Source: Podarcis cretensis
Taxonomy: Eukaryota
DNA: 64,000 bases
Assembly: GCA_951804945.1 (NCBI GenBank)
Contig: OX638162.1
Location: 25,358,001 to 25,422,000 of the forward strand
Reading direction: 5' to 3'
A program made the translations under genes and the position numbers. Shown piece after piece: positions 1-59,576 of the stretch; the first letter of the stretch is position 1; each line of letters starts with the position of its first letter. The notes beneath the pieces were generated by a model that was given only the letters and a program-made list of their open reading frames with translations, did not search any database and was not told the DNA's origin.

Positions 1-378
1 AAGAAGGCAATGTTGGAGCTTACTGCTGTATCATTTTGTGCTCCTCTGCTGGGGCCAAGGGAGAGAGAGGTAGTTTTGGAAAATCCACGAGCACAGGTCT
101 CAAAACAGTTTCCAGAGAGACTGGAAACAATGTCCAGAGATAAACCGAAGCATGCTTTTTCAGAAGCTTCCATGCATAATTTGCATGAAAGAGACCGAAA
201 GAGAAATGAATGAATTGTTACAACGATGGGTGTCATCACCAGTGAACTGAAAACACAGTGCAATAAATGAGTATTCTGCCATTTGATATTTGCTTCCAGC
301 ACTTCCCAGTTCAATCTTTTGTTTTCAGTCATGGCATTCAGAAACATTTCAGAGCATGGGAGCAACACTTGCACTTAC

Positions 379-488
379 TTCTTTATCCTCTCTGCAAAAG
401 ATGCGATTTCCTCCAAAAGTGTTTGGACTGTTATAACAATGTCTTGAACCATGTGGATTCTTTCTATCAAGCCTTTTTTATCAGATTC
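379..488 (-). CDS. MCTP2: MCTP2 window-exon 12 (110 nt, phase 0-2), C-terminal region
   Basis: Acceptor ctcccag|GAA, donor AAG AA|gtaagt. Translates to [36 protein letters not shown](N). Confidence 0.97.
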
Positions 489-1433
489 CTGGGAGGATTA
501 AGGAAAAGAAAGGCAAGGGGGTGGGGGAGAAAAGAAAAACACAAATGCATAAGGTTTGTATGTCCTAAAATTGTCCCAGACAATGTGGGTTGTAGGAAGA
601 TTATTGTAAGATGTTTGGTAATATCTTTCAGCACAGCAAAGTTTGAAATTCAGGCACTCAAACCGTCTGGAGAGGTAACCTGGAAACCTATGGTATTCAT
701 TATGAATATTCTATTTCAAGACTTAAAACAACAGAAACCTACACTTCTGCTTTTAGCACTTTGGTGGAAGGTTCCTTCAGGTCACTTGAAAGTTCTTGGA
801 ACTGCAAAGCTGCTTATAAGAGAGGCAAAATATAGCACAGAAAGAGACATTTTCAGAAATTCATATCCTTTGAAACAGGCTCCCCCATCCTGGGGCCCCT
901 CTAGATGTTTTGAACTACAACTTCCATCAGCAACAGTCCACACAGCCATATCACTAAGGATGGAAATAAACCAAGGATTAGCAATATGGTGTCCTCTACA
1001 TGTGGCAGGCCACAATTCCCATCAGCTCCAGCTAGTCAGGGACGATGGGAATTGTCACCCAGGACACCCAGCCCAGGACACAACACTGGCTACTTCAAAA
1101 CTATACACTACAAGGCAAACACAGGCTGCTCATCCATGTGTTTTCCCCATAAGAACATCCTAGCAGATGGCTGGGGATGCTGAACCCTCCCAATCATTGT
1201 TTGTTCCCTACAAATGCTTCCCTCCCTAGATGTTATCTCTGTACACACAGGTTTGGGCACATGTGCTTGCCAGCTTGTAGCTCCATGTAGCCTTCTCCTG
1301 CCTTGGCACAGGTCACAGCACACTGCTTCCAATGAGGAAAAGTGAGGCCTATGCTTAGAGATCTAGTAGGGTCACCCAGTGCTTTGCCTGGCTCTCTCTT
1401 ACTTCTGGCCAATTCTTCATGGCAACAGAATTT

Positions 1434-2289: not shown

Positions 2290-2835
2290 GCATTTTATTT
2301 ATTTACCTAAGCATTTATAATTTGCATTTTCATGCAAGTATAACAAGGCGGTATACAACATAGATTATACCATTCTTAAAAAGAAAAATATTGCAAAGGC
2401 ATGTCAAAATTGTAGTTTTCAGAGAAGTTCTAAAAGAAGACATGGATGAATCCTGCCCAGTGTCTATGGGTAGGGACTTCTACAGGGCAGGGCCTGCCAC
2501 ACTTGGTTCCTAACAAAGGTTGACTGAACCTTAGGGATGTAGGAAACCACAAGAAGTGCCTCATCAGAGGATCTCAGTGATTGAAGTGGAGCATAAGGAA
2601 TTATACGTTCCTTAAGATACTTTGGGTCCAACTTGTTTAGAGCTTTGTGAATGAACACAAGAACCTTGAACCAGACCCAATAGCAAATCGGCAAACACAT
2701 GTGGAGTAGCCCATTGTCAGTAACCTGCCCCTTTGAGCAGTCTGTCTACTGTGTTCTGCACTAGTTGAAGCTTCTGGACTAGATACCAGGGCAGCTTCAC
2801 ACAACGTGCATTTTGGTAAGAGTCTCAAGGCTGCA
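2290..2835 (-). mobile_element. degenerate L2-clade LINE 3' fragment
   Basis: Minus-strand remnants VQYNAALRLL and FKVLVFIHKALNKLDPKYLKERIIPYAPLQSLRS, plus an A/T-rich tail. Confidence 0.75.
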
Positions 2836-4550
2836 TTGTATTGAACAATCCATTTCACTCCAGTTGTTCTGCATTCCACTTTTGGTGAATATTATTATTT
2901 TGATTGCGACTTCTTTGGCAACGTGGTCCTCTTAAGCCAATTTTCAACTGGCTCACTCAAGATGGGCATCAGTGACTTGATACCCTGAGCTCAGAAGCCT
3001 TTGTTTAAAATTAAGGCGAAAATTCCCTGCCTGTATGACAAATCTGTCCTCTCAACCTTTCCTTCTCATCCTGAACTAAGCAGAGGGAGGAGACCCCTTT
3101 TTCTTCACAGCCCCTTTCTTACTTCAACTGTTTCTCACCCGGCTGTGCTACTCGGTGTAGAATAAAAGCAGCCCTCTTCCTCTGGGAAAGCATTAAAACC
3201 ATCAAAACGAATTTACAACTGAGAATTAATTACATGATCAGTGTGTTGCTTAAAATCTTCCCTGCATATTCTGAGCTAAGAAAAGACCTTGCTTCTCCAT
3301 TAATTGCTTAAGCAAAACTACAAAAGAGGGTCTTGGCGAAGATTAAGCATGTCAGAGAAAAAGAACTAAGAGAGGGGTGGAGGAAAGTTGAACAGAGTCG
3401 GAATTTAAAGGCTTTTGTGTCTGAGTAATTCACCTCAGCTTGAACTTGGAAAATGAATAAGATGTGTAGCTCTTGCCCAAGGGAGGCCAAAATGTTCAAC
3501 ATCTAACGTTTGTCAAGCACCCATCACCCAATGGCTTACAATGAACACGCTGGGTGTTCACTCCAAGAGGCCAAGGTTTTGTGACATTGTGCAACAGTGT
3601 GTCCCACTTTCAGCACCTCTGACCCTAGAGACAGGGTTATGCACATTGCCTGCAAAGCTGTCTAAAAATATATTTAATAAATAAAATGAGCCTCTGCAGA
3701 GCTAGCCCCCTGGAGAACAGGAAGCAGAGAAAATTGGGGTTATCTGTACAGGCTCCACCAGGAAAACAGGATGGATCAAAGACTTTGGTGAGAGGGTTAA
3801 TTGGGCCTATGGCTGGACAGCCATACTGAGAGTAGCTTCCAAACAACTCAAGTTGGAGCGTAGGGCACAATGGTAGTTTTAACAGATTTCAATATTTGGT
3901 AGTTGTTGTTTTGGTAAAGAAAAAGTTATGCTACAGCCAGGGATCATTCAATACAGGGTGTATCTCGGTGACATCATAAACACAGTTTCTCAAGTCTCAA
4001 TTAAAGAAAATTCCACTTGATTCCACTTGATATAGATGAAAGATCAAGACAACCATCAGCAATGCAAGGCTAAGTTGGCCACACCCACCAAGAAAAGTAT
4101 AGGTTGTATCCAGCTAAATTTTACTCAGAATAGACCCAATGAAATTAGTGGGCTAAGTGAGTTATGTCCTTCAATACCAAGTGGGTCTACAACCCAATGC
4201 CTTTTGAATTTAGATCCAAAAGCTTCTGGAGCTGATTTTACAGTATCAGGTGGTTTTGTGCTCGAGTCTCCAGAAGAAAGGCAAATTTAAGATCGGGAAA
4301 ATCAGAAATGACACTAAAATGCAATTTGCTGCTTTATACAGGATGGACGAAAACTCAGCACTGTCCTCCAGCTGAGGGGCACTCCTATCCCCTTTTGGGA
4401 AGTCAAAGCTAAGAAGTTATTCTGGTTTCGTAAGCGGAGCTGGACTGTGGGTTGGCATTCCCTTGCCCATATCCCCAGGAAGTTTGGATGAAGCTCAAGC
4501 AAATTAGATGACAGGTTTAAAACTGATCAATGCAATCAGGTTTTTAATGT

Positions 4551-19731: not shown

Positions 19732-19867
19732 CAGGCACAGGCAAACTCAGCCCTCCAGATGTTTTGGGACTACAACTCCCATCATCCCTAGCTAACAGGA
19801 CAAGTGGTCAGGGGTGATGGGAGTTGTAGTCCCAAAACATCTGGAGGGCTGAGTTTGCCTATGCCTG
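19732..19867. mobile_element. fold-back hAT MITE, 136 bp; decayed copies near 900, 1010, 9190, 14150, 16170, 18910, 24300, 24530, 29460, 50820 and 53780
   Basis: Near-perfect inverted arms of about 57 bp and a perfect 8-bp TSD ccttaacc (19724-31 and 19868-75). Confidence 0.92.
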
Positions 19868-27041: not shown

Positions 27042-27772
27042 CCGTATTTTTCGCCCTATAGGACGCACCGGCCCATAGGACGCACCTAGTTTTTTGGGGG
27101 GGAAATCAAGGAAAAAATTTTTATTTCCCCCCCAGGTTTGCAGAGCCATCCCCAAGCTAGAAGAGGGAAACGGAGTGCTCTGTCTCCCTCTTCTGCCTTC
27201 AGGGACAGCCTCTCTAGCCTCCGTGGGGCAGCGGCTTACCCCGCTGTCCCCCGTGCTTGTGGGGCTGGCGGGGGGGGGAGAAGCAAACTTGCTCCCCCCC
27301 CCCCGCCAGCCTCCAGATCAGGTCCGGGAACAGCGGGGTGGCGGCGCTCCGCCTCCCCGCTATCCCCCGGGCTTGTGGGGCTGGAGGGGGGGGAGAAGCA
27401 AGCTTGCTTCTCCCCCCCCTGCCAGTCTCCAGATCAGGTCCAGGAATAGCTGGGTGGCGGTGCTCCGCCTCCCCGCTATCCCCCGAGCTTGTGGGGCTGG
27501 AGATGGGGAGAAGCAAGCTTGCTTCTCCCCCCGCGAGCCTCCAGACCAGATCGGGGAATAGTGGGGTGGCAGCGCTGTGCCTCCCAGCTGTCCCCCGAGC
27601 TTGTGGGCTGCAGGCTGCTGCCTGCAAGCCTTGCGAGCCCGTGGGACCTCCCGCCGGCTTGCAAGGCTTGCGAATAGCTTTATGAAGCCTGCATTCGCCC
27701 CATAGGACGCACACACATTTCCCCTTCATTTTTGGAGGGGGAAAAGTGTGTCCTATAGGGCGAAAAATACGG
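27042..27772. mobile_element. Tc1/mariner-type non-autonomous DNA transposon with an internal GC-rich tandem array
   Basis: TIR CCGTATTTTTCGCCCTATAGGAC at both ends, TA TSD, about 3.2 internal copies of a ~115-bp unit. Confidence 0.92.
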
Positions 27773-34564: not shown

Positions 34565-34959
34565 CCGTATTTTTCGCCCTATAGGACGCACTTTTTCCCC
34601 TCCAAAAATGAAGGGGAAATCTGTGTGCGTCCTATGGGGTGAATGCAAGCTTTCACTGAAGCTTGGAGAGCGAGAGGGGTCGGTGAGCACCGACCCCTCT
34701 CGCTCTCCAGGCTTCAGGAAGCTATCAGCAAGCCTGGGGAGCCCGCGGGAGTTCCTGCAGGGCTCCCTAGCCTGCGGATAGCAGCCCGAAGCACCTACTA
34801 CTACTAGCACCTACTACGGTAGGTGCATTTTTAAAAGCTTGGGCTTCCCCCACCCAGCCCCGCGGCTGGGGGGGGAATAAAAAAAAATTATTTATTTTCC
34901 CCCCCAAAAAACTAGGTGCGTCCTATGGGCCGGTGCGTCCTATAGGGCAAAAAATACGG
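34565..34959. mobile_element. same Tc1/mariner MITE family as 27042-27772, opposite orientation, different interior
   Basis: Same TIRs and subterminal sequence, TA TSD, and an internal hairpin with 30-bp arms at 34656-34717. Confidence 0.92.
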
Positions 34960-42189: not shown

Positions 42190-43156
42190 ACTGTTAGAAT
42201 CCAATACTAAGAATTTGTCAAAAATGTATAACTTGCTGTTGAAATGGAATACACAAGATGAAACGGTTAAGTCAGCCATGATTAAGTGGGCACAAGATAT
42301 TGGTCATAACATTATGTTTGCTGACTGGGAAAGGTTGTGGACCACCGGTATGAAATTTACGGCATGTAATGCCTTGAGAGAGAATATTATGAAAATGATA
42401 TATAGGTGGTACATGACCCCAGTCAAGCTGGCAAAAATCTATCATTTGCCTGATAATAAATGCTGGAAATGTAAGGAAAGTGAAGGTACATTTTTTCACC
42501 TTTGGTGGACGTGCCCAAAGATTAAGGCTTTCTGGGAGATGATATATAATGAATTGAAAAAGGTATTTAAATATACCTTCTTGAAGAAACCAGAAGCTTT
42601 CCTCTTGGGTATGGTCGGCCAACTGGTGTTAAAGAAGGATAGAACTTTTTTTATGTATGCAACAACAGCAGCAAGAATACTCATCGCAAAGTATTGGAAG
42701 ACACAAGATCTACCCACCTTGGAAGAGTGGCAGTTGAAGATGATAGACTACATGGGACTAGCAGAGATGACTGGCAGAATCCGGGACCAGGGAAAAGAGA
42801 CGGCGGAAGAAGAATGGAAGAAATTTAAGGACTATCTTTGGAAACACTGTAAAATTAATGAGTGCTAGAATGACGTGGGTTCAGAAATTAAGTGGTTTTC
42901 AGCGGTATTGACTAAGAAAAAAGAAAGGAAAAGTGAAAATTACCTTGAAAATAAGGGAGAGGATTTGTTGAATTGATAATACAGAAATTGGAATACAGAA
43001 GGGGGAGGTATGAGGAGGTCGGGGAAGTTAGGTACATGAAAATAAGGGATTGAAATTATACTTGTTTGTTTGTTGTTTGTTTTGTGTTTTTTATTGATGT
43101 GTTTTCTTTTTGTGTAATATTTGAAAATTTAATAAATACCTTTAAAAAAAAAAGAG
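42190..43156 (+). mobile_element. 5'-truncated L1-clade LINE (ORF2 C-terminus, 3'UTR, poly-A)
   Basis: Stop-free frame 42191-42868 with CCHC knuckle CWKC-x8-HLWWTC. AATAAA at 43131, A-tail, 18-bp TSD agagaaatatgaagcttg (42172-89 and 43157-74). Confidence 0.93.
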
Positions 43157-56012: not shown

Positions 56013-57498
56013 GCAAACTGGGATAAACACCTCCAATTAAAAGGTTTGTTGGAAGAGGAAGGTATTCAGCAGTCGTCAGTCTAATATTCAAGGAAAGGGA
56101 ATTCCAAAGGGCAGGTTCTACACTCCTGAAGCTCTGATTCCTATATTGTATGGAATAGACCTCCTGATACGTTGGTATCTGCAGACGGCCTTGCCATCAA
56201 AGTGCAGTGATCAGTTGGGTATATAGGGGGTGAGACTATCTTTCAGGTATCCTGGTCCCAAGCTATATAGCCTTTGTAGACCTGCACCAACAGCTTGAAC
56301 TCAGATAAGTAGCTCATTAGCAGCCAGTGCAATATTTCCAGTGGCAGTTTAACATGACGGTCATAGTTCACCTGTGCATTTCGAGCTAGTAGGTCCGGCT
56401 ACCCTAGTCCAAAAGCAGCCATAGCTATCTTACCAGCTGACAGGCACTCCTAAACACTGAGGTCACCTTGGCCTCTAGTGATAGAGATGTATCCAGGAGA
56501 ATCCCCACATACTATAGACCAGGGACTCAGTTACAATAGCCCAAAGAACCACATTTTGAATGTGTTATAAACATGCAACACCAGATGGCGCTGGAGAGTA
56601 AAAAAATATTCTATGCAATTTTCCATAGTGTGTTTTTTTTTAACTTTTGTTATAACAATTTAATTTCTGACTTATTTATAGCATTTTCCCCCTGTGTGTA
56701 GATCCACCCCAGCTCTTTTGGTATTTAGGAAATAGCTTATTATACATAGATTGTTGACTGCCACGAGTTGCCCACGGATATGCATGTGCCGGGATATACA
56801 CTTTTAAAACAGAAGGTGTGGGATGTTCTAAATAGGTTATGCGGCATGGGTCACATTCACACCATACATTTAAAGTACTATGATACCACTTTAAACAGTC
56901 AACTCCCAAATAATCCTGGGAGTTGTAGTTAAGGGTATGGAGAGTTGTTAGGAGGCCCCTGTACAATTCTCAGAGTGGCTTCACCATCAATTCCTCTTCC
57001 ACAACCTGGCACCTCCAGCTGTTTTTGACCGCACCCAACACAGCAGTCATTGCGTCCCATGCAAATGCAAGTGGTACAGTTCACAGAATCACATTCTAGA
57101 GTGACAAAGAAGCAGACAAAGAGAGAATGGGGCTATGCAGAAGCAGACTTTATTCCCCATGGCTGGGCTCACTACATATATATGCCTCTAAATAAGAGTA
57201 ATCCCTTGCAGACTGCATGGTTGCAGACCAGTAGTAAAGCATCTGTTTCACAAGCAAAAGGTCCCAGGTTCAATCCCTGATATCTTCAGGTAGGGATAGG
57301 GTTCAAATCCTTACTCAGCCATGAAGCTCACTGGGTGACCTTGGGCCAGTCACCGCCTCTCAGCCTAACCTACCTCACAGGGATGTTGTGGGGGGTTAAA
57401 TGAGAAAGGGGGGAACCACATATGCCACCTTGAGCTTCTTGGAGGAAAAGGTGGGATAAAAACACAACAAATAAATAGACCAACTAAGTTAGTTCTAG

Positions 57499-57536
57499 GT
57501 ATGAGCTTTCGTGTGCATGCACACTTCTTCAGATAC
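57499..57536 (-). ncRNA. minimal type I hammerhead ribozyme motif (sense to MCTP2 pre-mRNA)
   Basis: GUAU-CUGAAGA-A-GUGUGC(AU)GCACAC-GAAA-GC-UC^AUAC: conserved core boxes, 6-bp stem II, palindromic AGCU stem III and 4-bp stem I. Confidence 0.7.
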
Positions 57537-57666
57537 ACTGAAACAGAAGTCACCAGACCCTTCTATATAGTGACAGGCTCATCACAGCTATCTGCCTATC
57601 ACCCATTCCCACCACCCTTCTGAGTAATACCCCTCCCCACCTTCTCACTATATAGAAGGGTCTGGT

Positions 57667-57704
57667 GTATCTGAAGAAGTGTGCATGCACACGAAAGCTC
57701 ATAC
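57667..57704 (+). ncRNA. minimal type I hammerhead ribozyme motif (identical copy, antisense to MCTP2)
   Basis: GTAT CTGAAGA A GTGTGC AT GCACAC GAAA GCTC ATAC. Confidence 0.7.
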
Positions 57705-57945
57705 CTAGAACTAACTTAGTTGGTCTTTAAGGTGCTACTGGAAGGAATTTTTTATTTTGTTTTGACTATGGCAGACCAACACGGCTACCTATCTGTAACT
57801 GGAACAAATAAATAAATACACTGAGAGCGAGTGAACGAGTGAGCAAGAGAGATTATTCCACATTTTGTTCCCCACATCAACTTCATTCATATTCAAGGCT
57901 TTCACAAAACACATATTTAAAGAGAGAGATGGAAAAAAAACTTAC

Positions 57946-58076
57946 ATTCCCAAAACTTCTTCGTGCTTTTTGTTATCCTTTCCCCAGATCTCAATCTCCA
58001 ACACATCCTTCCTGTCAGAGAAGTAGTGAAAATCAAATTGTTCCCTCCACTGTGGATTTGCACTCTTACAAAGTGT
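57946..58076 (-). CDS. MCTP2: MCTP2 window-exon 2 (131 nt, phase 0-2), C2B
   Basis: Acceptor ttttctag|ACA, donor GGAAT|gtaagt. Translates to [43 protein letters not shown]. Not present in the ORF track. Confidence 0.97.
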
Positions 58077-59353: not shown

Positions 59354-59576
59354 CAGTGCTTTTTTTCTGGGGGTACGCATTCCCCTAAACATTTTGTGAA
59401 TCTAATGGGAGAAGAAACTAAATTTTTAAAAATTTTCGTTTCTTCTCTAGCACGGTGAATCATCAGTTCCGTTGCTACCCCCGATGGCGGCTTCCTTTCC
59501 TTTCCCAGTGTTTCCTGAGTCTCAGGAGGAAACAAGAGTACCCCTAAACATTGTTTTTAGGGGGGGGGGAGCACTG
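59354..59576. mobile_element. hAT-type MITE, 223 bp
   Basis: CAGTGCT...AGCACTG termini and a perfect 8-bp TSD catatatc (59346-53 and 59577-84). Confidence 0.85.

Follow-up and report, generated by a model that had tools for sequence, protein, structure and literature searches.

The 325-bp insert found in an intron of MCTP2 of Podarcis cretensis is very probably a young, 5'-truncated, head-to-head pLTR copy of an abundant Penelope-like retrotransposon. Under this assignment the element's enzyme likely cut AT-rich DNA and the RNA was copied twice in opposite directions, and the hairpin predicted for the insert is most likely a neutral by-product. The insert had been noticed in the letters of the window (the whole 64,000-nt stretch of DNA analyzed here) by a sequence-only reading, which described a Penelope-like insertion with two inverted hammerhead ribozyme motifs. 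It is real, correctly identified and ordinary, with a layout known in print: opposite-strand pairs of minimal hammerheads (min-HHRs) 100-700 bp apart, reported in Schistosoma (PMC4209133), and inverted pLTRs (PMC3846280) have both already been published.

The insert occupies positions 57478-57802 and lies between exact 12-bp direct repeats (57466-57477 and 57803-57814; AACAAATAAATA), so that its size and its 12-bp target-site duplication (TSD) were as first described. The edges are blurred by 1 nt on the left and 3 nt on the right, where the flank overlaps with the element by chance or microhomology. The inverted arms, said to be identical but for a 15-bp deletion, indeed consist of two perfectly matching blocks, one of 62 bp (57477-57538 and 57665-57726, 100%) and one of 23 bp (57551-57573 and 57645-57667, 100%). 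Reverse-complementing the left arm (57478-57573) gives 57645-57725 except for a 15-bp gap in the right arm, which lost the sequence between two GTG copies (around 57665), and the base at the center of the inversion, 57573, is common to the left arm and the direct fragment (Table 1). The deletion was absent from every other fetched locus of the family. It results from slippage at a later time or from a template jump at the hotspot of arm 5' ends described below, where the deletion ends; a splicing product was rejected, as the missing piece is too short and its junction is wrong. The insertion is young: at least six other genomic copies match the left arm in 96 of 96 nt, and from 57667 on the insert reaches up to 99% identity to other copies.

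Table 1. Coordinates of the insert, its parts and its surroundings in the window
Feature	Position	Strand	Basis
Old SINE-like host repeat, whose A/T-rich tail took the insertion	57298..57465	+	genome copies
Left copy of the 12-bp target-site duplication	57466..57477	+	exact repeat
Inverted tail-less pLTR fragment, L031 unit 2839-2935	57478..57573	-	alignment to full copy
Hammerhead motif (minimal type I) in the sense of MCTP2; cut predicted at 57503/57502	57499..57536	-	
Left-arm TATATAG box (putative promoter role), 31 nt upstream of the 5'-end hotspot 57538-57536	57563..57569	-	
Direct pLTR fragment with tail, L031 unit 2767-3008	57573..57802	+	alignment to full copy
Complement of the left arm within the direct fragment, with the 15-bp deletion	57645..57725	+	
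Hammerhead motif (minimal type I) in antisense to MCTP2; cut predicted at 57700/57701	57667..57704	+	
First codons of the element ORF inside the direct fragment, ATG	57768-57770	+	
Right copy of the 12-bp target-site duplication	57803..57814	+	exact repeat
MCTP2 coding exon, C2-domain stretch	57946..58076	-	Pfam C2 30.9 bits

The target of the insertion, which had been called a SINE tail, is the A/T-rich tail of an old and abundant SINE-like repeat. A genome search with 57298-57462 gave 3,753 candidates, the 40 that were scored had 84-90% identity, and all five copies that were read finish in A/T-rich tails. We take this repeat to resemble Squam3/Ther1-type SINEs, on the basis of the descriptions in PMC7983390 and not of a consensus alignment. 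The neighboring coding exon has a GT donor at 57945-57944; it is assigned to MCTP2 through a different exon of the window that matched MCTP2 in PDB 2EP6 (E 7.9e-14). As this exon (57946-58076) is on the minus strand, the minus-strand hammerhead motif is read in MCTP2 pre-mRNA, and it is located 410-447 nt past the donor, within the intron, in agreement with the earlier estimate of about 410-440 nt.

A genome search with the insert produced 1,279 candidates, of which 40 were scored, and many of the copies run upstream into a shared coding sequence. One copy, L031 (G000:C14:51056132-51059387; L031:633-3888), is a direct tandem with a period of 3,011 bp and identical pLTRs, and it contains an intact ORF of 910 aa (L031:840-3572) with RT followed by a C-terminal GIY-YIG domain (RVT_1, E 9.3e-12; GIY-YIG, 22.6 bits, equal to the Pfam cut-off). 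Both window arms align to both pLTR repeats of L031 with 92-97% identity. The arms are thereby linked to an intact RT and GIY-YIG ORF, which confirms the Penelope-like identity of the insertion and supplies the association with such an ORF whose absence had been named as a way to refute it; the ORF sits in the family copy L031, and the window stump is pLTR-only. A C-x4-C-xx-C linker at residues 770-778 of the ORF agrees with the CX2-5CxxC linker that PMC8557442 defines for the Neptune clade and as shared with Nematis. All the hallmarks of EN+ Penelope-like elements (PLEs) were found: an RT and GIY-YIG ORF, tandem pLTRs, 5' truncation, an inverted 5' copy, the tail (optional in these elements, 30-40 bp) and a TSD. 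With its intact ORF and identical pLTRs, L031 also makes the family look recently active.

The family is very abundant. The 38-nt hammerhead had 6,322 exact matches in the genome (3,134 forward and 3,188 reverse), whereas the reversed motif used as a control had none. Among the first 100 matches listed, 16 neighbor pairs lay within 3.5 kb of each other, all of them minus-then-plus, and no close pair was convergent or tandem. These 100 matches (contig C1, 0.2-12.7 Mb) defined a sample of 84 loci, whose classes were called automatically from BLAST pieces, with a few loci being complex: 47 were head-to-head, 37 had a single orientation and none was tail-to-tail, in a sample that favors two-armed loci because it was chosen by exact motif match. 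Both cores were full in 28 of the head-to-head loci, one was full and one partial in 14, and five had one core. A TSD of at least 10 bp was detected at 38/84 loci, with a peak at 12-13 bp, and at 0/84 shifted controls; together with the reversed-motif control, this excludes chance. Arm 3' ends cluster at unit 2963-2976 and unit 3002-3013, about 40 nt apart, and a head-to-head locus usually has one arm ending in each of the two clusters, so that these two positions define the tail. The 3' end of the window left arm (unit 2935) is about 30 nt short of the usual tail-less end and is the third shortest of 48.

Inverted arms, a target duplication and the lack of coding capacity would also suit a non-autonomous mini-element of its own kind (MITE- or retrozyme-like), moving as an invariable 325-bp unit bounded by terminal inverted repeats. 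However, sizes and inversion points vary at every locus and many copies continue into the ORF. In addition, the junction and the 15-bp deletion of the window insert were shared by no other fetched locus, and both arms were covered in only 2/39 other scored places (40 having been scored of the 1,279 candidates), at 84-86% identity. A fixed repeated unit with common boundaries, by which a non-LTR retrozyme would be recognized, was not found among the loci compared, and we consider a mini-element extremely improbable.

Within 224 kb around the window, one further two-core cassette and one core-less fragment were detected. The cassette (L120, G000:C14:25464367-25464562) is head-to-head, about 190 bp long and 49 kb away towards the 5' side of MCTP2, and its center junction coincides with the 5'-end hotspot. 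In the L123 region (G000:C14:25475514-25475628), a single 115-bp piece of pLTR starts at unit 2903, inside the hammerhead and a few bases before the cut site. At five other loci (L032, L059, L067, L084 and L111), the center junctions contain short repeated or re-copied pieces, such as extra TG units, core fragments and at least three arms, which are suggestive of template jumps or slippage.

For a 5'-truncated head-to-head pLTR copy, a route of insertion can be proposed from the anatomy of the insert and from the Poseidon element PAc of Anolis carolinensis (Frangieh et al. 2024, PMC11167929). According to that paper, the Anolis element in vitro nicks both strands, initiates internally, inserts mainly from RNA that is unprocessed and shows protein-assisted cleavage; we infer that corresponding steps produced the window insert. 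The GIY-YIG domain would nick both strands about 12-13 nt apart at an AT-rich site, each nick would prime copying of the pLTR RNA from one of its two internal sites, which would define the tail, and a single base common to the 5'-truncated ends of the two short cDNAs would join them. Since both arms read through the cut site, the RNA template was uncleaved. In MCTP2 pre-mRNA, the arms would zip into a predicted 85-bp hairpin and be spliced out with the intron. Even without the hairpin, cleavage is unlikely because a partner copy is needed for stem III (plus protein in the Anolis element). For head-to-head junctions, PMC3846280 proposes self-priming on an antisense template, a route that may also apply here, and reports that inverted copies, with TSD and tail, are most often head-to-head; an inverted 5'-truncated copy is described as a typical PLE feature in PMC8557442.

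Published EN+ PLE insertions, namely Pen2a/Pen2 of Adineta vaga (PMC3846280), the scheme in PMC8557442 and form C of D. virilis (PMC2377424), resemble the window insert in having a head-to-head inverted pLTR, a tail on one arm, a short TSD, and a pLTR with a TATA-like box and the first ORF codons. Compared with them, the window copy is pLTR-only (325 bp), its TSD is 12 bp rather than 8-10 bp, and its tail-less arm is about 30 nt short for its own family. PAc, likewise a lizard PLE, has in common with the Podarcis family the RT, the C-terminal GIY-YIG domain, the pLTR hammerhead and AT-rich targets, as well as two preferred 3' ends defining the tail and a hammerhead that is intact in genomic copies (PMC11167929). 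However, the Podarcis family has a Neptune/Nematis-type cysteine linker, a 910-aa ORF and an ATG about 65 nt downstream of the hammerhead, whereas the ATG of PAc is inside stem II.

Each arm contains stem I (GUAU/AUAC), the CUGAAGA core, an extra A, a palindromic stem II, GAAA, GC and UC, and the cores without stem I are located at 57503-57532 (minus strand) and 57671-57700 (plus strand). When the sequence was read against the min-HHR features listed in PMC4209133, the conserved core, the extra nucleotide after A9, G10.1-C11.1, the palindromic 15.2-16.2 and the short stem I were all present. The motifs are thus minimal type I hammerheads by sequence, and the cut predicted between 57503 and 57502 on the minus strand holds at the sequence level. 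Min-HHRs of metazoan PLEs (PMC4209133; Lunse et al. 2016 as cited in PMC6765202) share the CUGANGA and GAAA cores, the extra nucleotide between 9 and 10.1, G10.1-C11.1, the palindromic 15.2-16.2 and a short stem I, and their occurrence in PLE repeats includes turtles and snakes (PMC4209133). The description of stem II stood in part: six bp are as written, but they would close a 2-nt loop, so that the monomer folds with 5 bp and a 4-nt loop. Stem II is a perfect 14-nt palindrome (57679-57692 and 57511-57524), which, in contrast to published min-HHRs, is predicted to be able to pair between molecules. Stem III of a lone motif is only an AGCU palindrome. According to PMC4209133, single min-HHR motifs did not cleave in vitro and dimers cleaved weakly.

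The Rfam search that had been proposed as a check did not recover the motif. No Rfam family reached its gathering score anywhere in the window, and no hammerhead model was present among the eight Rfam matches at E<=10 around the element; therefore, the hammerhead is recognized here by its core pattern and not by Rfam. One of the weak matches, to MIR1222 (50.5 bits, against a gathering score of 90), was dismissed as reflecting the long hairpin only. Elsewhere in the window, the core pattern was loosely matched only at 59428-59466, which is without an evident stem II.

In a head-to-head geometry the antisense arm comes first on either strand. The proposal that the antisense arm is transcribed first and locks the sense motif was thus correct as to order, and the locking is predicted: in the MCTP2 direction, the cassette folds into a long hairpin with P(stem I) near 1e-39, and the penalty for imposing the hammerhead fold is 56.5 kcal/mol (55.8 kcal/mol on the plus strand). 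Without the antisense arm, predicted P(stem I) was 0.0003 when upstream read-through sequence was included, 0.16 for the arm alone and 0.81 for a 60-nt RNA begun at the stem, whereas a 101-nt L031 RNA from the family start site misfolded (P = 0.008). In the folded minus-strand fragment, the upstream UUCAG was paired with the core. Folding analysis allowed stem III only between two copies, and a double-hammerhead dimer had -12.7 kcal/mol compared with -32.2 kcal/mol for the best dimer, which forms through the palindromic stem II, in an energy model that leaves tertiary terms outside. This predicted pairing of stem II could compete with a double hammerhead or hold it together. The masking hairpin itself is a prediction, and it follows from a known and frequent insertion geometry.

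The sequence-only reading had gone further and regarded the insert as a self-masking cassette. According to this model, sense intronic hammerheads would be harmful, masked head-to-head copies would be kept, and editing or helicases would unmask the ribozyme to cut MCTP2 pre-mRNA. If true, this would be the first insertion geometry selected to silence a ribozyme and the first cryptic ribozyme switch in a vertebrate intron. The predicted masking is strong and the core is intact, and the perfect stems of 62 bp and 23 bp would suit ADAR. However, masking on both strands arises from the geometry without selection, 28/84 loci carry both full cores, and 37/84 are unmasked single copies. A special cassette that tolerates intronic insertion found no support. 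A response to editing or unwinding found no support either: the lone motif has nothing but the AGCU palindrome for stem III, its stem I is predicted to be nearly absent in read-through RNA even without the antisense arm (P = 0.0003, as above), and editing would be expected to damage the A-rich core. In addition, the insertion is young, and within 224 kb there is just one further sense-strand core, itself masked, at a distance of 49 kb.

Selection was also assessed with the T/A skew of flanking DNA, a weak and low-power stand-in for host transcription that was used without gene annotation. By this weak proxy, the 37 single-orientation copies showed no orientation bias (mean +0.006, s.e. 0.0075; negative in 17), nor did single and head-to-head loci differ in absolute skew (p = 0.42, at low power). 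Most 10-kb bins of the MCTP2 region have a negative T/A skew, and the expected effect is less than 2 standard errors. The counts point to plain geometry over selected masking, and we regard an editing- or helicase-operated switch as highly unlikely. For MCTP2, the insertion probably matters little, being a young intronic stump and one of thousands.

The 5' ends of the arms revealed an additional regularity. Of 135 arms, 31 end at unit 2872-2876, just before or at the start of stem I, compared with 15 in the preceding 27 nt. None of the 135 (partner and bystander arms only) ended at unit 2910, the first base of the cleavage product; choosing loci by an intact motif leaves ends inside it under-sampled, but this does not account for the excess relative to the upstream side. 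In the window, the hotspot corresponds to 57538-57536 on the minus arm and about 57665-57667 on the plus arm, and a TATATAG box is located 31-33 nt upstream of it. All 14 arms ending at 2874 have an upstream T where the element has A, a non-templated G precedes 2876 in 9/87 distinct contexts (vs one A and no C), and, genome-wide, 1,366 copies have T at the upstream position vs 313 with C or G. That this T stems from a subfamily substitution was rejected for the 14 arms at 2874, whose upstream sequences are all different; the rejection applies to those arms and not to the genome-wide count. Splicing was also considered as a cause of the hotspot, as the site follows CAG and the intron of Drosophila Penelope ends at helix I (PMC4209133), but the 14 arms share only one upstream base and not an exon.

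It is quite possible, if somewhat short of probable, that RNA starts at the first one or two bases of stem I. Judged from the arm sequences, the 90-135-nt arms would then be run-off copies, made from internal priming sites up to a capped 5' end, with a cap-derived G and an added T, or would reflect telomerase-like slippage on GUGU, and the start site would switch the ribozyme fold. With such a start, the ribozyme would be folded in RNA from the pLTR promoter and would be hindered, according to the folding predictions, by the upstream UUCAG or by the antisense arm in read-through or host transcripts. In the openly accessible literature searched, including three text supplements of PMC11167929, no published report of a start-site pile-up was found. 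In Drosophila Penelope, the promoter is TATA-less and internal, with an intron 46 nt after the start (PMC2377424).

It has also to be asked if the left arm is itself a small internal promoter, in which the TATA box fires at 57538-57536 in the MCTP2 direction and gives an RNA that lacks the antisense arm, folds the hammerhead and could cleave as a two-molecule dimer. The left arm keeps TATATAG at the normal 31-nt spacing from the hotspot, and the predicted P(stem I) of the 60-nt RNA from this site is far above the values for the whole arm and for RNA with more upstream sequence (0.81 vs 0.16 and 0.0003). However, just 4 nt of pLTR remain upstream of the box, the 101-nt L031 RNA from the same site is predicted to misfold, the double hammerhead is far from the best dimer (in the energy model without tertiary terms), and the Drosophila Penelope promoter is TATA-less. 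Promoter activity of the left arm therefore appears very doubtful. The family is young, has an intact ORF copy and more than 6,000 identical hammerheads, and the starts and stops of reverse transcription can be read from its arm ends, so that it is good material for two questions about PLEs, namely the origin of the inverted copy and the purpose of the hammerhead.

Several other features of the window were recorded. Perfect inverted-repeat arms of at least 20 bp with a partner within 500 nt are also found at 19739-19784, 27388-27415 and 34664-34685, and are not of the Penelope-like family described here. Long stop-free frames are present at 1-1160 (plus strand, 298 codons) and 42191-42865 (plus strand, 225 codons), the latter of which is presumably the end of a LINE ORF2.
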